Source of the DNA: an uncultured virus (IMG/VR IMGVR_UViG_3300023110_000026)
Taxonomy: Duplodnaviria > Heunggongvirae > Uroviricota > Caudoviricetes
Length of the DNA stretch: 20,000 nucleotides
Reading direction: 5' to 3' (one strand)
IMG/VR virus record: IMGVR_UViG_3300023110_000026
The notes beneath the pieces were generated by a model. That model made no database searches. It worked only from the letters and a program-made list of their open reading frames with translations, and was not told the origin of the DNA. The position numbers and the translations under genes were made by a program. Shown here piece after piece: positions 1,178-19,593 of this stretch; within the stretch, counting starts at the first letter, position 1; each line of letters opens with the position of its first letter.

Positions 1178-4100
1178 TTATGCTCCGTAGTTATCATTCG
1201 TATTCCCTCCGGACTCATCTTGTCCTCCAAAATCATCTGAAATAGCAATGTCAGTACCAAATGCAAAGAACGCTCTAGCCGCCATATCACCGCCTACACC
1301 GCCTTCAAACGATATTTTTGCTTTTGCTTGTATAACACTACCGTCGGTAGTATCTATTTCTTGACCACTATCACCTGATGTAATAACACCAGCAGTGACT
1401 TTGTTAACATTAACACTAGAACCACCACCTGTAATACGTGATTTAACGTATGCCGCTATTGCTTTTTGTGTTGGTACTACGTTATCACTGTTTGCTACAA
1501 ACAGCGGATCAATTGAGAACTCTTTAATTACTGCACCCGTACCACCAAGTGTCACACCACCTAATGATAATTCTGTTAATCCTGATAAATCAAACTGATC
1601 AGCATTAATAGTAATAATACCCGATGCCTGCTCAACTTCAAATAGTTCACCTACTCTAAAGTTTCCATCTTGGTCAGTGGACGAGTAAAACACTCTACCA
1701 CCATCACTAAAGTCTGTTTCGTTTTGTTGTTTTACAGCATCTTCGTCTGCTTCAGTAAATCCTTGTAAGTATCTTACAGGATATCTAGTTGAATTTTTAT
1801 TACCAGTACCAATATCTAGGAAGTCATGGAATGTTAAACGAACCTGACTGTATTGTTCACGCATTACTAGTGCTGTGTTATGATCTGGTGACTCGTCAAC
1901 TCCTAATGTTGGACTAATCTGTATTGTTGCTGACAACGTTGGTTCAGATCCTGTAATATCAGTGACTTTTGTGACCAAATATGTTTTTCCGTCAATACCT
2001 GTAATTGATAAGTTAGCACCCGGACCTGGTTCTCTAGTTAAATCAGTGACCTTAATTTTGTTTCCTGTTTGATATACATCAGCATATCCGTCGCCTGTGA
2101 CACTTGCTGTTGCACTTCTAAATTTAGTACCTCTATTTCTAAATGAAGGTTGAGGTAATACACCATTTGCAATTCTTAATTTAACATAAGGATCAACAGT
2201 TGCTAAAGGATCACTAACTGTCATACTCATAGCATCTGTTTCTTCAATTGTAATTGCTGTTGCGCCAGCATCTTCTGTGCTACCATAATACAGACCACTT
2301 GGTGCATCATATTGAATTTCAATTTCAACTGTACGATTTGCATAATCTGCAAAATCTCTAAGGAACACGTCTCTGCTTACAACTGTTGTTCCAAAACGAT
2401 ATACAACATTATCGGACCAAACAATAGTTTTAGCCGCATCTTGATAGATATTCAATGGATGAATGTTATCTTCAACTACACCGTCAACAACTGCACCACC
2501 ATAGTTTTTAAGTGATTCATCACTTAAATCAAAAGTATATCTTCTACCTTCAGTAAATGTTAATGTTGGGTTTTCGCTTCCGTCGATAAAATAAACATCT
2601 GCTGTATCTGCCGCATTTCTACCAAATGTGACAGCAAACGTATTATTAACATTCAATAAATCGCTTTCGTAGTTTGAACCTGGATCATAAATCCAAAACT
2701 CGCCTGCTCTTGTATTTTTAACAAACATTCTAGCAAATGGTTTTCTACCTGCTTGAATTACAACAGCATTTTGTTCGCCTGAACCTTGTAGAGGACTACC
2801 ACTTCCCATTAATACAAATTTACATGAGTTTCCAGGAGTACCAATTCCACAAGTGGTCCAATTAGCAGTAGTTGGAAGAGTTTTTGCTTCCCAAAAAATT
2901 CCATTTTCTGAAATTGCAAATTCGTCCGTATTAGGTTTAAATGCTACATATACACCTTGGCCGTATCCTAAGAACCAGTTGCCTGTTGATGGTAAAACAT
3001 TTTCTTGTCTATACCACGCACCATGGCCGCCTGTTGGATTAATCCATACATCGTCGCTATTTGTTTCTGTTGCAAGGAAAATGTTATTACCATAAACCAT
3101 GCTTTCAACATTTGACATATCTCCCATGCTAACAAAGTTTTCAGCCCATTCAGTATTACCAGGTGTTTTTGTATAAATTCTCATTTTAGAAGAATCCCAG
3201 TCACCCGCTACTGCAACAAACTTGCCGGATCCGTATGCCATTCCTCTAACGCCGCCGTCAAAACTTTCTGCTGACGGTAATTGTCCTGCTGTCCATGTAT
3301 TGCCATAATCTAAACTTTGGAAATATTCAGGCGAGCCGTTTGATGTCACTAACCATTCTGAACGCCCATCAACTCTTACAAGTGCATACGAACTATCTGG
3401 TTGTACACCTGATCCTGTACTATTATAGTTTACATAATACATAGGAACACCAACTAACGAGTTGGGTACTGTCCATACTACTTTTCTTGTTTGCGCCGCA
3501 TTAAATCCTGATACATAAGCCGCTAAATCTGCAACTTGTTTATTATTAAGATAATATTTTACGCCTTCTGTATATTCGTCGCCGCCGCCATTAATACCTT
3601 CCGGAGTTGAACTAAAATAAATTGGGCAGTTGTTATTTGAGCCATCGTTTTGATTAAACGTATAAGTATTTCCTTCAACAACAGAAATATCTGGAGCAGT
3701 ATTTACTGCGCCATCAAAGTGATAAAGTGGATTGTCTCCAGGTACAGAAACTGTGACTTTAAATGTCTGCTCAATTGTTGGGTTATCACCAAATGCAATA
3801 TATCTTGTTTGAACTCCTGTACTATCGTTAGTGACCTCGTACATTGTCCAGTTTTCGCCGTCGCTTGATACCGCAACAATACCTTCTTTAGCAACAGCAA
3901 CAAACTTACCGCCACCGTAATCTAAATCTTGCCAAGACCAACGACCGGTTGATTGTGGAAGATTACTTCCATCCATATTTCCGGCAGTCCAACTAGTACC
4001 GTTTGTAGAATAAACAAACTGATCTGTTCCTGAATTACCAAATTCACTTTGTGCAATAGCAACGTATCTATTATTACCAAACACAACTTTTTTATAGTCT

Positions 4101-7762: not shown

Positions 7763-7779
7763 TTATTTCTCACCTATAT

Positions 7780-8127
7780 TTAACTGTAATCATATGGTTG
7801 ATTTACTCTTGCGACTAAATTTCCATCTTCGTTGATGTAGTAATTAATCTTTTGGTAATCCCATCTGTATTGTTCATATTTTAAGTTGTTATAAACCTTT
7901 TCGTGGTTTACATCTCTACCTTCAAAAAAGTCTTGTCCAATATCAAAATCGTTATAGTTCTCTGCACTATTACCAGGAACGTTAATTTCAATTTGATCAT
8001 TTGGATTTAATTGGTCAACAATAGCAAGGTAAATTGTACCGTCGTCTAGTTTTCTTAAACCATAGAAGTATCTGGTATTCATACCATCTATTAGTTGTTC
8101 CATATTTCCGCCGATATAATTTGCCAT
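7780..8127 (-). CDS. Hypothetical protein (115 aa), likely virion-associated
   Basis: ORF with SD AGGAG, tightly packed between structural genes; aromatic-rich (RYFYGLR, YEQYRWD). Confidence 0.8.
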   Translation of the reverse strand: MANYIGGNMEQLIDGMNTRYFYGLRKLDDGTIYLAIVDQLNPNDQIEINVPGNSAENYNDFDIGQDFFEGRDVNHEKVYNNLKYEQYRWDYQKINYYINEDGNLVARVNQPYDYS

Positions 8128-8139
8128 CGTTATCTCCTA

Positions 8140-8469
8140 TTAAGTTTGTTCCGCATAACTTATTACTGCGTCAACGCTATCTGCATAACTTGACGAAATT
8201 TGTAAAGTATGATATTCATCTAGTACTAATTTCTCACTACCATTTAATGCTCTTAGTGATCCGTTTGGTGGTATTGGAACATCTTTTGCGTAATATGCTA
8301 CAACACTACCTGCGTCTTTAACCATAACACTTCCTAACACTGTACTATCTTTTGTATTTGCTAGTGAAATGCCCATAATTACAACTTTTCTATTAACAGG
8401 AACATTGATCGCATCAATTGGTAATTGACCTACGTCTTTTATAATTGCATTTTTTAATATCGTTGCCAT
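8140..8469 (-). CDS. Small beta-rich virion protein (109 aa), paralog of 12805..13149
   Basis: Shared pattern I-x-x-x-N...(V/L)-x-(I/V)-P...EK-(L/F)-V-(L/M)...(V/T)-IS. Starts 9 nt after the stop of the 1228-aa gene. Confidence 0.8.
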   Translation of the reverse strand: MATILKNAIIKDVGQLPIDAINVPVNRKVVIMGISLANTKDSTVLGSVMVKDAGSVVAYYAKDVPIPPNGSLRALNGSEKLVLDEYHTLQISSSYADSVDAVISYAEQT

Positions 8470-8478
8470 CTATTTTCT

Positions 8479-11400
8479 CTATCCATATATTAATGCGTTT
8501 AAGAATGATAGTTCTTCCGCTTCTTGGAATGTAATACCACCCTGTTGTCCAACAACAGATGCCCATACACTACCATCCCACACTTCTAATCTACTCTGCT
8601 GAGTGTTATATCTTGTTAAACCTACAGCAAGATTAGACACTGGTCTATTGTTGTTATCACCTACTGGAAACTTAAGACCATATGTTCCATTAAAATCCAC
8701 ATATCCTTCGTCTGTTCCAGCAAAGTTAATCTGTGAATCACTTACTACATTAGTTATCGTATTTGTGCCCTGATCCCACTCTACATCTCCAATTACTACT
8801 TTACCTGTACCGTTTGGAGCAATAGTTAAATCTGCATCTGTAGCCTCTGTACTAAGTGTATTAACGTGAATTGTGTCAGTATTAAAACGTGTTGCATTTA
8901 AATCTGCTGTTAGTCCTGCCGCGCCATTATAAAATCTAAATGTATCGTCGTCATTACCTTGTGTTAATTCTGCTGTGATATAAGTGTCTAAGTCTTGGTC
9001 AACAACACCACTTACACTACCACCAACTGCATTCCAAAATCCGTCTGCATATAATTCAAATACGTTTGAACTTGTGTTATATCTAAACATACCATTAACA
9101 GGTGTGCCCGGTCTTTGAGCAGTTGTACCTGCAGGAAGTTTAATAGCATCATCACTGTTAAAGTCTACATATCCGTCGCCGTGTGCAAAAATTTCTAAAT
9201 TAGTATCGTTTCTAAATGTTTGTACAGAGTTGTTAATTAATTTAACTTCGTCTGAAATAAATGATGTTGTTTGTAAACCATCACTATCGATATAAGCAAT
9301 AGTTGTTCCTGCAACATCAAAAGTAATAACATCATTGTCTGCACCAAGTGTAGTTTCAACGTTTACTTTAGTATCACCATCTTGGTCACGGATTTCATTA
9401 AATCCGCCATTAATCACTAAGTTTCCGTCAATTACAACATCTGATGATCCATCTGGATTAATTGTTAAGTCACCGCTTGTAGTAATGATTTGATTACCAC
9501 TAATTCTAATATTTCCTGTTTCAACTCTGCTAGGATCTACAATAGTTGTATTTCCACCGTCAGTAAATGTTAAACCAGATAATGAACTAATATCAAAACT
9601 TTCTGCTTCAAATGTGACGTTTCCTGTTTCTTGGTCAACAGTAAATGCATTACCAACTCTAAAGTCACCGCTTTGGTCAATTGAACTGAATAATACTTTA
9701 CCGTTGTTTGTTTCAGTAATTTCGTTTGCTTGAATTACTCTAGAAACATCATTTTCTAAATTCTTTCCAACGCCTACGTATCCAAAGTTATGATTGATCA
9801 ATCTTAGGAGAACACCGTCGCCGTCTGCAATAACACCTTGATTTCCGTAAACGTTTGCACTACCAATTGCTCTTAGTTCAGCACCAAATTGTTTAAGATC
9901 AATAAATTCAATGCCTGTTGCACTACCACCACTTGAAGAAGAAATATCAACTTGAACTGCTACATCTTCTGTGACTGTTGTACTAGCATTTGCACCATTA
10001 AAGTGTGTTAAAAATACTGTTGTGCTATCTCCAACAAACTCTGCTGTTGGTGTTGAAAAACCTGACAAATATCTTGGTAAACCTTTAGTGACTCTTAGTT
10101 CGTCTACATATCCTGTAAACAAGTTTGTGTTATTATAGTCGCCACCAATACCAAACATTCTTGCTGTACCATAGTTGTTTGTATCACTATATGTTGATCC
10201 GTCTTGATTTCCGTTAACAAACAATTTTGTTCCATCGTTTGATCTAGAAACAGCAATATGGTACCAAGTGTTTGTTAGTAGTACATCTGTTCCAGTAATA
10301 ACATCACTACCAGCAACAGCAACTCTTACATTAGCACCGTTAGTATAAACACTAATTGCATTATCACTTGCTTCTGTTCTCATATCAAACAAGTATTGTG
10401 TTCCTGTGACTCCGTCAAATCTAAAGAAGCCTTCAACTGTAAAGTTTCCTTCTCCAAATCCAAAATCATTTGAACTAGGCACACTTGCATAATCACCTGT
10501 GCCATCTAGGTATAAACTTGCTGTACCAAACTTTTTCTGTGTAGTACTTAAAGAACTATTTCCTGTTAGGTTAATAGTTTTACTTTTTCTATCAGTTGTT
10601 GTAGACCAACCTGAAACTTTACCATCAAATGTTAATCTTAATCTGCCGTCAACTGTTTCTTTTGATTCAATAGTACCTTGTGCTAGTACTGTTGATCCGT
10701 CTTCTGATGTTAAAGTGACTGTGTCGGTGACATTAAACGTTCCTGTGTATCCCGATAAATCAACAATAGTTTTTCCGTCGCCGCCTCTACCAGCACTACC
10801 TGATTCGCCAACAATGCCTTTGTCAGCAAAATAAACAAAACTGTTTAACCACTCACATCTTGCACCATTAGTCATATACAAACCAACGGAATTTGGTACA
10901 AAGAAAGTAGTATCATTAAACAACATTGCCGCTTCAATTGAACTTGCAGAAACTAAACTACCATCAATTTTTGCACCACGTCCTGCATCTCCACTATCAA
11001 AACCATAAGGATCACTAGCACTAGTTGTAGTACCTTTGTTTAATACTGTACAGTTTATTATATATGGTGATTGCAATGGAACACTTAATGATCCAGCAGG
11101 ATCAAAACTAAAAGCATAACCTGTGTCGTTTGACGAGTTATACTTCATATTTTTAATTGCTAAATGTTGAATAGTTGTAGCACTGTTTAAGTGAAAACAA
11201 TCTAAATCTTCTGTTGCAACAGTTGGACTAACAACAGTTGCACGTAAGCCTGCGCCGTCTACTGTGACTCCTGCTGGTACTACTAGTGGAAATTCTTCTG
11301 TATAAATTCCTGCAGAAACTTTAATAATATCACCTGAACTTGCTTGACTCAAAGCGTGTTTGATTGTTGCAAATGCACTGTCAATACTAGTGCCTTCTTC

Positions 11401-12165
11401 TGCGTCGTCACCGTTTTGTGTCACAAATAATGTCTGACCTTCTTCATTTAAAAGCAAGTTTTCAATTCTTACTTTACCTGTTCCGTTAGCACGAATAGTT
11501 AAATCTGCATTACTGTCAATAGTTTCAATTGTTGAATCTGTAATTTGAATATTATCAATATTTGCTTGTCTAGAGTTTAGTGTTTTCCAACGTTTGCTAG
11601 GAGTACCTAGTGTGTAAATTTGATCAGCATCTGGAATAATATTTGAAACAACATCTGCTTTAAAATTAACAGTGTCTGTGTCAGCATCACCTAAATTAAT
11701 ATTTCCGCCAGCAGTAATATTGCCAGTTGCATATAAGTTTCCTGTGACGTTTGTGTTTCCTAATAGTTCAATAGTACCTGTTCCATTAGGAGCAAGTTCG
11801 ATAGGAGCATTACTATCAATTGTACTGATAGTGTTGTCATTCATTTCTAATGAATCAACTTGAATTCTTGAATGGTAAATTACAGGATCACCACCTGAAG
11901 GTGTAAGTTCAATAGTACCTAGTGTACTACTAATTGTGTTTCCTTGAAAAGTTAAATTACCTGTTGTTGCTGAATTTGTTGCAATCCAGTCTGTGACTTG
12001 TACTGTACCGTTTACATCTAGTTCATAGGAAGGATTGGTCTTTTTGATACCAATGCGACCATTGTTAACATCCAAATATAATAAATCCGTTTCAAACGCC
12101 AAGTCCACACCATTACGGAGCAGATTTGCCTTTAACAACGGACCCGAAATACGACCGACGGCCAT
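8479..12165 (-). CDS. Fibre-like virion protein (1228 aa) with beta-helix, inserted LamG/concanavalin-A-like domain and fibre shaft repeats
   Basis: KFGTASLYLDGTGDY...FTVEGFF...WYHIAVSR...LFVNG...FTGYVDELRVTKG (LamG-like); LFVTQNGDD...AFATIKHAL (beta-helix start); repeated I-x-T-x-x-x-(N/D)-x-(D/P)-L-x-I-x-(P/A)NGTG; SD AGGAG. Confidence 0.8.
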   Translation of the reverse strand: MAVGRISGPLLKANLLRNGVDLAFETDLLYLDVNNGRIGIKKTNPSYELDVNGTVQVTDWIATNSATTGNLTFQGNTISSTLGTIELTPSGGDPVIYHSRIQVDSLEMNDNTISTIDSNAPIELAPNGTGTIELLGNTNVTGNLYATGNITAGGNINLGDADTDTVNFKADVVSNIIPDADQIYTLGTPSKRWKTLNSRQANIDNIQITDSTIETIDSNADLTIRANGTGKVRIENLLLNEEGQTLFVTQNGDDAEEGTSIDSAFATIKHALSQASSGDIIKVSAGIYTEEFPLVVPAGVTVDGAGLRATVVSPTVATEDLDCFHLNSATTIQHLAIKNMKYNSSNDTGYAFSFDPAGSLSVPLQSPYIINCTVLNKGTTTSASDPYGFDSGDAGRGAKIDGSLVSASSIEAAMLFNDTTFFVPNSVGLYMTNGARCEWLNSFVYFADKGIVGESGSAGRGGDGKTIVDLSGYTGTFNVTDTVTLTSEDGSTVLAQGTIESKETVDGRLRLTFDGKVSGWSTTTDRKSKTINLTGNSSLSTTQKKFGTASLYLDGTGDYASVPSSNDFGFGEGNFTVEGFFRFDGVTGTQYLFDMRTEASDNAISVYTNGANVRVAVAGSDVITGTDVLLTNTWYHIAVSRSNDGTKLFVNGNQDGSTYSDTNNYGTARMFGIGGDYNNTNLFTGYVDELRVTKGLPRYLSGFSTPTAEFVGDSTTVFLTHFNGANASTTVTEDVAVQVDISSSSGGSATGIEFIDLKQFGAELRAIGSANVYGNQGVIADGDGVLLRLINHNFGYVGVGKNLENDVSRVIQANEITETNNGKVLFSSIDQSGDFRVGNAFTVDQETGNVTFEAESFDISSLSGLTFTDGGNTTIVDPSRVETGNIRISGNQIITTSGDLTINPDGSSDVVIDGNLVINGGFNEIRDQDGDTKVNVETTLGADNDVITFDVAGTTIAYIDSDGLQTTSFISDEVKLINNSVQTFRNDTNLEIFAHGDGYVDFNSDDAIKLPAGTTAQRPGTPVNGMFRYNTSSNVFELYADGFWNAVGGSVSGVVDQDLDTYITAELTQGNDDDTFRFYNGAAGLTADLNATRFNTDTIHVNTLSTEATDADLTIAPNGTGKVVIGDVEWDQGTNTITNVVSDSQINFAGTDEGYVDFNGTYGLKFPVGDNNNRPVSNLAVGLTRYNTQQSRLEVWDGSVWASVVGQQGGITFQEAEELSFLNALIYG

Positions 12166-12262: not shown

Positions 12263-12269
12263 TTAATAG

Positions 12270-12277
12270 TATTTAGT
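12270..12277 (-). promoter_or_regulatory. T4-type late promoter -10 box (ACTAAATA)
   Basis: GACTAAATA occurs identically here, at 14118-14126 and at 14732-14740, each upstream of a structural gene. Confidence 0.7.
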
Positions 12278-12311: not shown

Positions 12312-12800
12312 TTAACCTACGATACTACCGTCGAAGCCGTGTATAACGGTGACGTCTTTACCTAAAGGAACAGGAGAATCAAACTTAATATATTTGTTGC
12401 CGTTAACATCAACAGTCATAGTATAGTTTACACCTGCAATTTGCACAACGTTTTCAACAAGTACAAGTACATTCTCAGCCGCGGCTGGTGATGGACTTAG
12501 TACACCAAATTGTGTTTCAGAGGCATCGCCAGTTCCTAAGTTTTGAACTTGAATGTTTCCTGGACGATCAGATCTAATTGTTTCCCAAGCATTATTAATA
12601 TATGCTTCAATCTCATTAATTTGACTATTATAACGAATTGTTCCGTTAACAGGTGCGCCACTACGTTGGCTAGTATCACCAGTACCAAGTTGTAAACCAC
12701 CAACAGCACCTTGGAAACTTACAGAGCCGTCAATGTCAACAAACACTGATTTGTCAACTATCATTTTTCTGTTAATCTGTTGTTGTTTTACAAAACGCAT
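12312..12800 (-). CDS. Virion structural protein (162 aa) with a fibre-type G-x-T-x-QR...G-x-x-RYN motif
   Basis: LQLGTGDTSQRSGAPVNGTIRYNSQINEIEAY matches two segments of the 1228-aa protein; C-terminal VLVLVENVVQIAGVNY...F.SP.P.G module; starts 4 nt after the upstream stop. Confidence 0.75.
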   Translation of the reverse strand: MRFVKQQQINRKMIVDKSVFVDIDGSVSFQGAVGGLQLGTGDTSQRSGAPVNGTIRYNSQINEIEAYINNAWETIRSDRPGNIQVQNLGTGDASETQFGVLSPSPAAAENVLVLVENVVQIAGVNYTMTVDVNGNKYIKFDSPVPLGKDVTVIHGFDGSIVG

Positions 12801-12804
12801 ATTA

Positions 12805-13149
12805 TTACACCGCTATTGTTGAAATAGTGACTGAAATAGTTGCTGGAGATGTTGTTTGACAAATGATTTTGTCACCCGACTCCATTACAAACTTTTCAGT
12901 ATCCATGATAAAAGTTTCACCTGCTGGAACTTTTAACTGATGTAAAATTTTGTTAACATCAGTTGCACTTTGTCCTGATTGTACAACGTGTACGTCAAGA
13001 TATGTGTCAGCATCAGTTAGAATATTATCACCTGGAATGTTATCTGCATCAGCATAATTACAGAAAATCATACTAGTAATAGCATTTTCACCTGTAGATG
13101 TGTATACTGTTGTTAATGTTGCATCTATAAAACTATTCGTTATTGCCAT
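12805..13149 (-). CDS. Small beta-rich virion protein (114 aa), paralog of 8140..8469
   Basis: SMIFCN...LKVPAGETFIMDTEKFVMESGD...VTIS; SD AGGA; starts 9 nt after the 309-aa gene. Confidence 0.8.
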   Translation of the reverse strand: MAITNSFIDATLTTVYTSTGENAITSMIFCNYADADNIPGDNILTDADTYLDVHVVQSGQSATDVNKILHQLKVPAGETFIMDTEKFVMESGDKIICQTTSPATISVTISTIAV

Positions 13150-13158
13150 ATCTTTATC

Positions 13159-14088
13159 CTAAAATATCATGCTCATTAGCATGGCTTTTCGTTTACTTGT
13201 CACCTCTCCACTAGTACTGTTATTTACAAAAAATAGGCCAGTTCCACCGAATCCTTCTGAATCAACATAGACTTTTAAACGCCCTGCAACACCAGTAGGA
13301 GTAGCACTTGCAGTAGGTAATGTTAACACCTCGTCAACAACTACATTTCCGCTACCGTTTGACTGTAAAACTAAATCTTCGTTAGTATTAGTAGGTCTAA
13401 TAGTTGTACCATCAAACTCTAAATCACCAAATGTCATGATATCACGTCTAATGTCTACTCTTGTGACATTATCAATTTTACCTAACAGTCTAGATACAGC
13501 ATCGCCTTCTTGTATGTCTTCTGCTTTAAAGATTGTGTTATCTGCTTGAATTTGTGGAATATTAATAGTTTGGAAAGCGTTATTAACATATCTTACGTTT
13601 GGAATATCGTCATCAGTTAAGCCTGTTTCATAATTAGTAGTACCTCTAACACTTAGTTTTGCGTTAGGAGCATTTGTGCCTAAGAAAACAATATCGTCGC
13701 CTGTTGTACTAATATGATTAGTTCTAATTGCGGCTAATCCTGAACCAACTTTAAACGTAAAAATACCTTCGCCAGTACCACCGTTTGGTCTAGTATAACT
13801 TAGTGTATCATCCCAAAGAATAGTTGCGTTATCAGCAGTTCCTCTTTCAATATCAATACCGCTTTGTCCAAGTGAAACACCATTTCCTGTTTCATTTTTG
13901 TTTAACGTAATGATAGCATCTTCAATTGCAAGTTCTTCAGTATCTACACTAGTTGTAGTACCTTCAACAATAAGATTACCTGTGACTCTTGTAGTACCTT
14001 TTCTATTGCCCGTATTGAGGGTGATTTCTCCCGCACTTACGGTAGTAATTTTGTAGTCACCAGTGAGTTTTAAAACATCAGTTGCCAT
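13159..14088 (-). CDS. Fibre-like virion protein (309 aa)
   Basis: VTGNLIVEGTTTSVDTEELAIEDAIITLN...GIDIERG segment typical of phage fibre shafts; IRPTNTNEDLVLQSNGSGNV repeat shared with the 1228-aa protein; short hydrophobic C-terminal helix. Confidence 0.75.
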   Translation of the reverse strand: MATDVLKLTGDYKITTVSAGEITLNTGNRKGTTRVTGNLIVEGTTTSVDTEELAIEDAIITLNKNETGNGVSLGQSGIDIERGTADNATILWDDTLSYTRPNGGTGEGIFTFKVGSGLAAIRTNHISTTGDDIVFLGTNAPNAKLSVRGTTNYETGLTDDDIPNVRYVNNAFQTINIPQIQADNTIFKAEDIQEGDAVSRLLGKIDNVTRVDIRRDIMTFGDLEFDGTTIRPTNTNEDLVLQSNGSGNVVVDEVLTLPTASATPTGVAGRLKVYVDSEGFGGTGLFFVNNSTSGEVTSKRKAMLMSMIF

Positions 14089-14117
14089 TCTATTAGAATC
14101 CTATACAAGTATAGTGT

Positions 14118-14125
14118 TATTTAGT
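14118..14125 (-). promoter_or_regulatory. T4-type late promoter -10 box (ACTAAATA)
   Basis: Same motif as 12270 and 14732. Lies directly downstream of a terminator and upstream of the 309-aa gene. Confidence 0.7.
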
Positions 14126-14126
14126 C

Positions 14127-14160
14127 AAGAGAAAAGGGCAAAGCGAATTTGCCCTCTCTC
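14127..14160 (-). terminator. Intrinsic terminator after the 148-aa gene
   Basis: Minus strand AGGGCAAA-TTCGC-TTTGCCCT followed by TTTCTCTT. Confidence 0.75.
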
Positions 14161-14182
14161 CAAGTTTTGGTAAAAACTACGA

Positions 14183-14629
14183 TTATGCGTTAGTAAAATC
14201 GTCGTCATCAACACCAGCCGCGTCATCGTCACCAGCCTCTTCAACTTGTGCCGCGCCATCTACTAGTGATGTGCTAAAGTTCCATGGCACTGACTTACCA
14301 TCATATGCGTTAGAACCTGTACCGTCTGGAGCAACTAGTGTTGCTTTACGACCTGAAATTTTAGAAACTTGATAAGTTTCAGAATCGTCCATTTTAAACG
14401 TGATACCCATTTCACCAGCCGCTAGTGCTGACATTAGTTTACCAGTTGTTAATGTACAAGTGTATTCAGTGTCTGAAGCACCAATTTCTGCTACTACAAA
14501 CTTTTTGCTACCTTTTTGTTTTACAATATGTCCTTCAACTACACTAGTGCCGTTGTGAAAATCAACTTTGATTTCATTTCCGCCCGCAGTAGGTTCGCCG
14601 AAGTATCTTTTATTAAGTGGTCTACCCAT
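14183..14629 (-). CDS. Hypothetical protein (148 aa, MGRPLNKRYFG...), possibly an abundant virion/decoration protein
   Basis: Strong SD AAGGAG, own late promoter, structured leader and terminator (monocistronic unit); acidic C-terminal tail. The function is inferred from position only. Confidence 0.75.
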   Translation of the reverse strand: MGRPLNKRYFGEPTAGGNEIKVDFHNGTSVVEGHIVKQKGSKKFVVAEIGASDTEYTCTLTTGKLMSALAAGEMGITFKMDDSETYQVSKISGRKATLVAPDGTGSNAYDGKSVPWNFSTSLVDGAAQVEEAGDDDAAGVDDDDFTNA

Positions 14630-14649
14630 TTGTTTTCTCCTTTTTAGAA

Positions 14650-14727
14650 GTCCGATCCGGGTTCTATCCGGTACGCAGTGGGTTTAATACTGCATAAGTC
14701 CATTACTTCAAATGGAACATATCTGAC
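14650..14727 (-). ncRNA. Putative 78-nt four-way-junction (cloverleaf-like) RNA in the 5' leader of the 148-aa gene
   Basis: Minus strand GTCAGAT/ATCGGAC closing stem enclosing TCCATT/AATGGA, TATGCAGT/ACTGCGTA (one U-G pair, favouring the minus strand) and CCGG/CCGG arms. Confidence 0.6.
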
Positions 14728-14731
14728 AATG

Positions 14732-14739
14732 TATTTAGT
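14732..14739 (-). promoter_or_regulatory. T4-type late promoter -10 box (ACTAAATA) overlapping the stop codon of the 91-aa gene
   Basis: GACTAAATAC, identical over 10 nt to 12269-12278. Confidence 0.7.
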
Positions 14740-15010
14740 CAACCCTGCTAAACAGGTGTAATAAGTGTGTTTGTGAGAACAATTTTATTGCATCGTTTAT
14801 TTCACGTGCTTTTTCTTTGTGTTTAAGTTGTAAACTGTCTGTTGGTCTTCTACGGATTTCTATTTCTATATCAGATAGTTTTCTAACTTCTCTTCCTATG
14901 CTTGAACAAAACTTAATAACATTAAATTTAAACTCAGGAGCAGTCTTAGTTAACTCTCTAAGTTCTTGTTCAATGTCTTTCCAGTCTAATGAAATTTCTA
15001 ATTCTTTCAT
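14735..15010 (-). CDS. Hypothetical helical protein (91 aa), probably leaderless
   Basis: Fills the gap between the gp23 terminator and the next promoter; TAAATA 5 nt before ATG; no SD. Confidence 0.7.
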   Translation of the reverse strand: MKELEISLDWKDIEQELRELTKTAPEFKFNVIKFCSSIGREVRKLSDIEIEIRRRPTDSLQLKHKEKAREINDAIKLFSQTHLLHLFSRVD

Positions 15011-15015
15011 AACTG

Positions 15016-15023
15016 TATTTAAG
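15016..15023 (-). promoter_or_regulatory. Late promoter -10 box (CTTAAATA), 5 nt upstream of ATG
   Basis: Minus strand CTTAAATA-CAGTT-ATG. Confidence 0.65.
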
Positions 15024-15027
15024 TCGT

Positions 15028-15057
15028 AAAAAAAGGGCGACCTAAGCCGCCCTTTTT
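15028..15057 (-). terminator. Intrinsic terminator after the major capsid gene (potentially bidirectional)
   Basis: Minus strand AAAAAGGGCGGC-TTAG-GTCGCCC followed by a T-run of 7. Confidence 0.9.
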
Positions 15058-15077
15058 AATTCCTCTAATACTAGATA

Positions 15078-16250
15078 TTAAGAGAATGATACGTTGGCAG
15101 AAGTAATTTGTACTTTACCAAGGTAGTCAGCCGCATTACCTAGTGAAGATGCAGTGTTTGTCAACTCTACATAACCATATCTAGTCATAAATGACACAAC
15201 TGGTTCGAAAGTTGATGGATCTAAAACAACACCTGAAGACATTAGCGGAATGTATGGGCAGTAGAATGCCGCCGCATCTGCTTCTGATGAACCTTTATAT
15301 CCAACAAGCACTTGGTTAGCATCTTGACCTGAATCAGCCAAGTAAGCGTCAACGTAAACTCTCATAGAGTTATTTAAAGTACCAACATACTTAGTGTTTG
15401 TTGGGCCTTCAAAAGTACCTTCAGTTGTTCTTGCGAACGCAGAAGTTGTAGCAGACTGTAGGATTGTCAATGCTTGGTTTGAAACCACTGCAAAGTTTCC
15501 TGCGCCTCTACGTGTACGTTGAGCAATTTTGTTAGCAACTCTGTTAATTTGAACTGCTAAAGCCGCGTGTTCGTCACCAACGAAAGTTGCAGTACCACTT
15601 ACGCCTGCTTGGTCGTAAGTTTCTTCAACTGATGCTAATGAACGAAGTGATTGGATGATCTCTTGATCGATTTCAGCAGTAATTTCTTGTGCTAAAGCCG
15701 CCATGATTTCAGCCTCTACGTCGATGCCTTGCTGTGCTTGAGCATCTTGAGCCGCTTCAAATGTCCAACGAGCAGATAGTTTACGAGTTTTCGCTTCTAC
15801 TGCTTGTTTTAAGATTTGAATGCTTAACTTTTTACCTGCAGAACCTTCTAATGTTGCAGTCGCATCTGCCGCATTAGTAGTTGCATTACCTGAATAACCT
15901 TCAGCAATTTTAAATGGTGAAAGTGCTTCTTCGCCTGCTGTTGCAGAATCGAAAGTTTCAGCATAACGTACTCTTAGTGTGTGGATCTGTGCTACAGGTC
16001 CAGTCATTGGTTGTACACCAACAATCTCGTTAGCGATTGTAGTTGGCATAACACGTCTAATTACTGGAAGGATAACTCTGTTTAGAGTTGCTACGTTCCC
16101 TGCGGAAGTTGCCCCAGCGGTTGCCGCCTCAGCGAGATACTTGCGAGTGTTCTCGAGAGTGACATCCATAACACCTTTTTTAGAACCTTGAAGGCCTTCT
16201 AAAAGTGCTTCTTTGGTTTCCTGCCAGTTGTTGTTGATATTTTCTGACAT
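15078..16250 (-). CDS. gp23: Major capsid protein, T4 gp23 family (short, 390 aa)
   Basis: Hallmark motifs IRRVMP...IVGVQPMTGP, VEAKTRKLSARWTFEAAQD, EITAEIDQEI, TRRGAGNF, VGYKG...DAAAFYCPYIPL, DPSTFEPVVSFMTRYG; follows protease and scaffold genes; SD AAGGAG. Confidence 0.97.
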   Translation of the reverse strand: MSENINNNWQETKEALLEGLQGSKKGVMDVTLENTRKYLAEAATAGATSAGNVATLNRVILPVIRRVMPTTIANEIVGVQPMTGPVAQIHTLRVRYAETFDSATAGEEALSPFKIAEGYSGNATTNAADATATLEGSAGKKLSIQILKQAVEAKTRKLSARWTFEAAQDAQAQQGIDVEAEIMAALAQEITAEIDQEIIQSLRSLASVEETYDQAGVSGTATFVGDEHAALAVQINRVANKIAQRTRRGAGNFAVVSNQALTILQSATTSAFARTTEGTFEGPTNTKYVGTLNNSMRVYVDAYLADSGQDANQVLVGYKGSSEADAAAFYCPYIPLMSSGVVLDPSTFEPVVSFMTRYGYVELTNTASSLGNAADYLGKVQITSANVSFS

Positions 16251-18885: not shown

Positions 18886-18930
18886 CTTCTTATCTCCTTT
18901 AGTTTGTTAATTGGCAAGGCTGTCATAATA

Positions 18931-18938
18931 TATTTACA
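18931..18938 (-). promoter_or_regulatory. Late promoter -10 box (TGTAAATA) for the core-protease-scaffold-capsid operon
   Basis: TAAATA core 45 nt upstream of the 289-aa ATG, directly after a hairpin plus T-run. Confidence 0.65.
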
Positions 18939-19580: not shown

Positions 19581-19585
19581 TGTAA

Positions 19586-19593
19586 TATTTAAA
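19586..19593 (-). promoter_or_regulatory. Late promoter -10 box (TTTAAATA), 5 nt upstream of ATG
   Basis: Minus strand TTTAAATA-TTACA-ATG; no SD. Confidence 0.6.

Follow-up and report, generated by a model that had tools for sequence, protein, structure and literature searches.

The stretch analysed here, 20,000 nucleotides (nt) of DNA from the uncultured virus IMGVR_UViG_3300023110_000026 (the window), carries on its minus strand, immediately before a gene for a protein of 148 amino acids (aa), an RNA that very probably belongs to the freshwater-2 family and serves, with its three hairpins, as the 5′ leader of a late message with one gene in a giant, uncultured phage of T4 type. This RNA is already known and is catalogued in Rfam. 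In an Rfam 15 scan of the whole window, the sole match above gathering score was to RF02980 (freshwater-2 RNA) at 14627-14716 (minus strand), a full-length match that spanned model positions 1-84 of 84 and scored 75.4 bits against a gathering score of 49.9, with an E value of 3.2e-10. The last model position is the AUG of the 148-aa open reading frame (ORF), and the gene lies directly 3′ of the RNA. The 103,536-base virus record that contains the window holds one freshwater-2 copy only, and the RNA was absent from all 14 of the 14 control genomes scanned. Rfam assigns the entry to the type Cis-reg; the RNA is very probably a member of this family with a cis-acting leader role.

Because the RNA matches a described Rfam family, the proposal of an earlier reading made from the letters of this DNA (hereafter, the sequence-only reading) that it is an undescribed structured RNA is refuted; the Rfam scan, which had been expected to be negative, returned RF02980 at 75.4 bits, the outcome named beforehand as refuting novelty. 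Other parts of that reading held. The Rfam family and the compensatory changes reported below bear out a conserved structured RNA of phages, the letters, arms and coordinates proved correct, the positions agree with a start that adjoins the late-promoter box and an end at the ribosome site of the 148-aa gene, and the suggested role of a translational control leader is consistent with the Cis-reg label.

The freshwater-2 motif reportedly originates in a comparative screen published by Weinberg et al. in 2017. The word 'freshwater' is absent from the main text of that paper (PMC5737381), and full-text literature searches for freshwater-2 as an RNA motif, for RF02980 and for the freshwater-1/2 motif gave no relevant match. 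Being in Rfam already, the RNA matters little as a discovery. The value of the locus is the context it gives to an orphan motif, which is found here in a late transcription unit of uncultured jumbo T4-like phages, occurs in short and long forms and keeps strictly to the genes of one abundant protein family, probably of the virion surface. The late-promoter box, the protein family and the jumbo-phage relatives may go beyond the catalogue entry.

In the Rfam consensus, three hairpins are followed by an unpaired tail, the Shine–Dalgarno sequence (SD) and the AUG, without a closing stem. The window follows this order on its minus strand. A T4-type late-promoter-like box, GACTAAATA, at 14732-14740 (TAAATA at 14732-14737) precedes the 5′ end of the leader, GUCAGAU at 14721-14727, which is also the 5′ strand of a proposed closing stem. 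Hairpin 1 (14699-14716) pairs UCCAUU with AAUGGA around the loop UGAAGU; hairpin 2 (14672-14696) pairs UAUGCAGU with ACUGCGUA and has the invariant base UAUGC/GCGUA and a C-rich loop; hairpin 3 (14657-14671) pairs CCGG with CCGG around the loop AUAGAAC, which includes the invariant UAGAAC. The Rfam alignment places all three of these hairpins. There follow AUCGGAC (14650-14656), which is the 3′ strand of the proposed closing stem in the fold and the tail of the long forms described below, the SD AAGGAG (14637-14642), which is part of the family consensus, and the gene itself (14183-14629 in the ORF list; AUG at 14629-14627), whose product begins MGRPLNKRYFG and is called the MGRP protein hereafter. 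CUUAUGC..GCGUA, the loop UAGAAC and AAGGAGAAAAcAAAUG, which are the conserved blocks of RF02980, are all carried by the window and are invariant or nearly so in alignment A1. The window copy thus shares with RF02980 the same three hairpins, the invariant CUUAUGC...GCGUA and UAGAAC, the AAGGAGAAAACAAAUG end and the position before a protein gene; it differs by its long-form tail, in which an extra closing stem is possible, and by a 9-nt hairpin-2 loop, and in nothing essential.

Compensatory changes in the three hairpins

The three hairpins are a real structure, far beyond chance. The comparison drew on 215 confirmed IMG/VR relatives of the 148-aa protein, from which 80 loci were kept, and on at least 120 further stretches from a pattern search for the motif core; a full leader could be parsed in 195 of 200 loci, which gave 131 distinct sequences. 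A covariance model built from 31 leaders yielded 102 matches in 100 sources. In the alignment of these 102 relatives, which was fitted to the covariance model and is therefore biased towards it, 13 of the 18 pairs change on both sides, and the covariation score is 0.325 against 0.090 in shuffles, none of 500 shuffles reaching 0.325. When the partners were slid by 1-3 columns, pairing fell from 81.6% to 25-47%. An alignment made with MAFFT only gave the same picture for hairpins 2 and 3.

All three hairpins are backed by compensatory changes among the 102 relatives. Every pair of hairpin 1 (6 of 6) covaries; the hairpin is variable in length, 60.3% of its cells pair, and at least six unrelated stem sequences occur among the relatives. 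Hairpin 2 pairs in 94.4% of cells, with compensatory changes at three pairs, and its base consists of five never-varying pairs, one of which is U-G, so that the transcribed strand is fixed. Its loop contains CCC in 95 of the 131 distinct leaders. In hairpin 3, all four pairs covary, 87.4% of cells pair and the loop UAGAAC is invariant in alignment A1. Hairpins 1 and 2 are joined by a linker of 2-3 nt, and hairpins 2 and 3 abut without junction nucleotides. GGACUUAUG, CGUA and UAGAAC, which are unpaired or at a stem base, stay invariant while the proteins diverge to about 35-45% identity. From this conserved, covarying and strand-specific structure behind a late-promoter box, we infer that the leader acts in cis on translation or stability.

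A possible closing stem in the long forms

Cut out as an isolated 78-nt stretch (14650-14727, minus strand), the window RNA folds exactly into the four-way junction that the sequence-only reading had described, both as the minimum free energy (MFE) structure and as the centroid (-21.6 kcal/mol, z -2.65); as stable a fold arose in 2 of 200 shuffles. The opposite strand is nearly as foldable (z -2.10), so that folding energy alone says little. What held for the isolated 78 nt did not hold for the family: as a family feature the four-way junction was rejected, being absent from the Rfam consensus and impossible in 66 of the 131 distinct members. These 66 leaders are short forms, the other 65 being long forms with a ..GGRCU tail. 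The short forms have no 3′ stem strand, and 2-10 nt separate their hairpin 3 (often GAC/GUC) from the SD; a closing stem therefore cannot form in them. The Rfam model, applied at its gathering score to 20 test loci, found 14 copies in 12, and the eight missed loci were all short forms.

In the long-form lineages, which include the window, GUCAGAU could pair with AUCGGAC or AUAGGAC and enclose hairpins 1-3. Such a stem would be a lineage-specific elaboration of freshwater-2, an add-on of the long forms and not a part of the core; that it really forms in these lineages is a possibility that we put below an even chance. Besides being both MFE and centroid of the excised RNA, the stem has an outer pair probability above 0.5 in 64 of 66 long-form leaders cut as the 78-nt stretch and in 61 of 66 cut before the SD, but in just 5 of 66 when the SD and 35 nt of coding sequence are included; in the window, too, it drops out of the MFE once the natural flanks are added. 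A GUC 5′ end is present in 63 of the 65 distinct long-form leaders. Among these 63, positions 1-3 of the stem always pair, position 6 pairs in 62 and position 7 in 58, yet none of them covaries and the stem as a whole has no compensatory changes; position 4 is A-G in 59 and pairs in 3, and position 5 is G-C in 17, G-U in 2, A-U in 1 and unpaired in 43. The GUC is also retained in many short forms that have no partner for it. The sole hint of compensation comes from two long forms (L096 and L164) in which GUUCAA/UUGGAC forms an unbroken run of six pairs, A-U taking the place of the G-C of the window. With the closing stem, 8-11 nt would separate the folded domain from the SD, a spacing close to the 2-10 nt of the short forms. 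Against this, the long-form tail is unpaired in the Rfam consensus and may instead make a small hairpin of its own or, in the window, pair CUUCU with AGGAG.

The pairing of the tail CUUCU with the SD AGGAG is possible in the window clade (14637-14650), where it has five pairs and an AAAA loop and is present in the MFE; most relatives have CUACU, with a central mismatch. A further pairing occurs in the window only, the 5′ arm of hairpin 1 pairing with the start region in the flanked MFE; relatives whose hairpin 1 has another sequence do not show it, and it was rejected. The same fate met the pseudoknot that had been suggested between GAAGU and ACUUC: the complementarity exists in the window but is not conserved, since 40.7% of cells pair across relatives, the same as the shuffle mean.

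Comparison with tRNAs

The sequence-only reading had also considered a processed tRNA mimic or decoy. The RNA is about 78 nt long and, when excised from the window, has a four-way MFE and a 7-nt loop in its last arm, features that recall the outline of a cloverleaf and of viral tRNA-like structures; it lacks, by contrast, a T-loop, a D-loop, an anticodon-type 7-nt middle loop and a CCA end. The absence of tRNA consensus features and a negative ARAGORN result had been foreseen, and indeed ARAGORN found no tRNA or transfer-messenger RNA (tmRNA) gene in the window, and the Rfam scan gave no tRNA-clan match in 14000-15200 even at E up to 10. Identity as a tRNA or tmRNA is thereby ruled out. That a discrete and undescribed tRNA-sized RNA (a tRNA mimic, a decoy or an assembly RNA) is processed out of the leader is very improbable. 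The family is described (RF02980); the acceptor-like stem is not conserved, its 3′ strand being missing from half of the family and its pairs showing no compensation in the 63 long forms; and the conserved block, like the family model, extends beyond the hairpins to take in the SD and the AUG, with no terminator between the leader and the 148-aa gene. There is no sign of processing, RNA-library contigs being unable to show ends.

Predicted late promoter and transcription unit

In 79 of the 80 related loci, TAAATA precedes the motif core at a fixed distance, within 70 nt; the 80th is cut by a contig end. The box reads ACTAAATA in the window and GATAAATA in most relatives. The T4 late-promoter consensus is TATAAATA, which is read by a gp55-type factor, and judged by this consensus the box before the leader is what we take to be a late promoter. 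All seven TAAATAY sequences of the 20-kb window are on the gene strand, where chance would give 12.7 over both strands; five of them lie 5-110 nt upstream of ORF starts and one is inside a 2194-aa gene. A further box, GACTAAATA, is found at 14118-14126, 30 nt before a 309-aa gene, and the three occurrences of GACTAAATA in the window each precede a gene. In all, the pattern search placed TAAATAY or GACTAAATA boxes of the gene strand at 3699-3705, 7776-7782, 12269-12275, 14118-14126, 14731-14737, 15015-15021, 18930-18936 and 19585-19591. Going by sequence, the TAAATAY boxes look like the late-promoter set of this phage.

Promoter, gene and terminator had been read as a self-contained unit. The single gene and its promoter box stand, and the gene is followed by a strong, terminator-like hairpin with a U-rich 3′ arm (14128-14161, minus strand; fold of 14120-14185, -19.2 kcal/mol, z -3.34, none of 200 shuffles as good). 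A scan for consensus terminators returned none and did not call this hairpin. The hairpin sits directly before the next GACTAAATA box.

RNA-library contigs cover the 148-aa gene without differences in four of four runs and, in X1, the leader and promoter too; as contigs they cannot show transcription or its start, end, strand or level. The listed RNA contig pieces of the four runs leave 14092-14153 uncovered, which, with no DNA run for comparison, is not evidence.

The MGRP protein

The leader is bound to one gene family. Of the distinct leaders, 120 of 121 precede M-G-R and one precedes M-A-R, and where MGRP paralogs stand in tandem each has its own freshwater-2 leader: in L196, proteins of 123 aa and at least 89 aa follow leaders at L196:263-374 and 745-855, and in L109, proteins of 367 aa and 134 aa follow leaders at L109:1-80 and 1169-1264.

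The MGRP protein is probably an SH3/Tudor-like beta-barrel and a virion-surface protein of the decoration type. It belongs to no Pfam or PHROG family; 255 clusters of the 50% library match it at E 0.001 or better, and its 1419 relatives of near length are all unnamed. AlphaFold (AF2), run on 35 sequences, gave an all-beta model with a predicted local distance difference test score (pLDDT) of 89.2. This model resembles Tudor, chromo, SH3 and KOW barrels only generically (VIA-align Z 5.4 or below), and Foldseek found no match to it in the PDB at E 0.001 or better. In BFVD the model matched uncharacterised proteins of phages, among them two from Agrobacterium phage Atu_ph07, and the ESM Atlas matches, which score below 0.9, offer head-fibre and tail leads only. 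Residues 1-50 have an isoelectric point (pI) of 9.6, R3, K7 and K90 are conserved, and the last 23 residues include nine acidic and no basic ones.

Among 20 longer homologues, 11 append fn3, Ig/Big_2, PA14/GLEYA, Laminin_G_3 or E1_FCCH domains after the MGRP domain, and the remaining nine have no Pfam family. It is because an anchor domain is combined with interchangeable display domains beside the capsid gene that we favour the virion-surface reading. T4 Hoc and T5 pb10 are capsid decoration proteins with an anchor domain and a display domain. The MGRP protein likewise consists of a small domain of the anchor type, to which homologues add Ig, fn3, PA14 or lectin domains, and is likewise encoded by a late gene beside the major capsid gene; it differs in having no sequence or fold match to either, and its gene is absent from isolated phages, a tblastn search of the 148-aa protein against 50,697 isolated-phage records having returned no match.

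Residues 24-63 match 12 stretches of P0103 (2155 aa), a protein to which Pfam assigns 12 Ig_2 repeats. This match may come from composition, or else from a distant likeness of the first barrel to Ig domains.

Possible modes of control

How the leader acts can be argued from its conserved parts. The likeliest of the readings, though one that we put forward with less than even confidence, is a gene-specific translational operator read by a protein, of which autogenous control by MGRP would be the simplest version. A sequence-specific factor acting in trans is the likeliest agent because some nucleotides are invariant, other late genes lack the motif, and there is neither an anti-SD nor a terminator: the SD is strong, conserved and unsequestered, and no conserved anti-SD sequence is found between leader and gene in the alignment of relatives. 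Transcription probably starts a few bases after the late-promoter box (14732-14740), and the RNA then forms hairpins 1-3 and leads into the strong, unsequestered ribosome site and the AUG of the MGRP gene. In the operator reading, a protein would recognise two invariant elements, the base of hairpin 2 and the loop UAGAAC of hairpin 3; unassembled MGRP protein is the simplest candidate, and its binding to its own leader would tie its synthesis to assembly. The AUG-GGN start may in addition be clamped by the C-rich hairpin-2 loop. The basic first 50 residues of the protein, its conserved R3, K7 and K90 and its Tudor/SH3/KOW kind of fold fit this reading. If such autoregulation were true, synthesis of a capsid-surface protein would be metered against assembly. 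For a motif of unknown function, this gives a testable hypothesis of translation control, either protein-mediated or by a start-codon clamp.

Several observations weigh against an operator of this kind. The spacing between hairpin 3 and the SD is about 2 nt at its shortest and about 25 nt at its longest across short and long forms, which argues against a simple steric operator. The fold matches of the protein are generic, with Z around 5 and never 8 or more, and are no evidence that it binds RNA. A plain stabiliser or enhancer, moreover, explains most of the same facts.

Such a constitutive leader, whose hairpins would shield the late message from 5′-end-dependent decay or present the strong ribosome site so that an abundant virion protein is made at a very high rate, without any trans factor or switch, is unlikely in itself but nearly as likely as an operator read by a factor in trans. 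In its favour, the predicted 5′ end lies at or close to the start of the structure, the SD is exposed, no alternative fold is conserved, and the closing stem of long forms could pair the very 5′ end. Stabiliser hairpins, however, need no invariant sequence, whereas UAGAAC, UAUGC/GCGUA and GGACUU are fixed while the stems covary, and the other late genes of the record, gp23 included, lack the motif.

A more specific form of the operator reading, in which free MGRP protein, bound to the invariant hairpin-2 base and the UAGAAC loop, would stabilise a clamp between the hairpin-2 loop and AUG-GGN in the manner of S15, the closing four-way stem being added in the long forms, is improbable.

Autogenous translational operators include the pseudoknot 'entrapment' operator of Escherichia coli ribosomal protein S15 (rpsO) and those of phage T4 gene 32, gene 43 and regA. 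Freshwater-2 resembles these as a gene-specific structured leader that adjoins the SD and AUG of one gene, in the possible pairing of a hairpin loop with the start codon, and in the protein served, whose barrel is basic and of nucleic-acid type and whose tail is acidic; it has no sequence or structural homology to them, and the analogy would be one of working only. The CCC of the hairpin-2 loop (95 of 131 leaders) stands opposite the invariant AUGGG, and in the single leader with AUGGCA the loop ends in ACCAU, which is complementary to AUGG. The clamp also meets objections that add to those above: the best loop duplex overlaps the start in 97 of 135 leaders against 68 of 135 with shuffled loops, a low specificity, and its mean energy is only -5.2 kcal/mol; loop–start pairing cannot covary, AUGGG being fixed by the protein; and the Rfam consensus shows the hairpin-2 loop as weakly conserved and A-rich.

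A small-molecule riboswitch, in which the junction of hairpins 1, 2 and 3 would bind a metabolite or ion and control MGRP translation, is quite unlikely. Conserved junction and loop nucleotides do lie in a covarying scaffold upstream of a gene, and these phages do use riboswitches, since the corresponding intergenic region of relatives has a glutamine riboswitch aptamer. The leader, however, has no expression platform, neither a conserved anti-SD nor a terminator being present; abutting hairpins 2 and 3 and the short linker between hairpins 1 and 2 leave little room for a pocket; and the regulated gene encodes a structural-type late protein without a link to metabolites.

Phage relatives and gene neighbourhood

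The phages that bear the motif are uncultured relatives of jumbo phages. The head module of the window is of T4 type, with a Gp23 major capsid protein (PF07068, 3e-98), a prohead protease and a gene in scaffold position, and is followed by giant baseplate and fibre genes. The nearest relatives of the capsid protein are those of Sinorhizobium phage Phosso (70%), Vibrio phage 2.275.O (67%) and PA5oct (65%), and the gene order of the window matches PA5oct and Vibrio phage 2.275.O. CheckV rates the 103.5-kb record as 30% complete, and relatives of the 148-aa protein occur on contigs of up to 330 kb. The MGRP protein is unrelated to the translated gene that follows the capsid gene in Phosso and Vibrio phage 2.275.O, and none of the genes annotated at that place in PA5oct resembles it.

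Among the related loci, gp23 is upstream of the MGRP gene in 72 of 74 and the 309-aa gene is downstream in 71 of 71. The 91-aa ORF, whose protein had been proposed for a test of binding to the RNA, has a homologue in just 13 of 74 loci and was rejected as a conserved partner. The gap between the capsid gene and the MGRP leader is variable in relatives and holds other Rfam RNAs above gathering score: glutamine riboswitch aptamers (RF01739) in three loci, manA RNAs (RF01745) in two, and one tRNA. These lie at L063:2024-2073 and 2353-2557, L040:2345-2397, L021:2332-2379, L132:700-913 and L057:2790-2860. The gap of the window has no other Rfam RNA and holds the 91-aa ORF instead.

A search of 185,579 species genomes of prokaryotes gave 44 pattern matches, of which five pass the covariance model and 39 are chance matches. 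The five true copies (L218, L222, L242, L244 and L246) are on contigs of 1.4-335 kb in metagenome-assembled genomes labelled Rhizobium, Crocinitomicaceae, Rickettsiales and Neomarinimicrobiota (two contigs, of 153 kb and 335 kb). They are probably phage DNA binned with bacteria and indicate no host.

In the fibre module, the 162-aa protein and the C-terminal part of the 1228-aa baseplate-type protein match the same PHROGs (1325, 24138, 29838 and others), and the 114-aa and 109-aa proteins both match phrog_1276. The genes with common PHROGs are at 8479-12165, 12312-12800, 8140-8469 and 12805-13149; given these common matches, the fibre module has repeated small modules.

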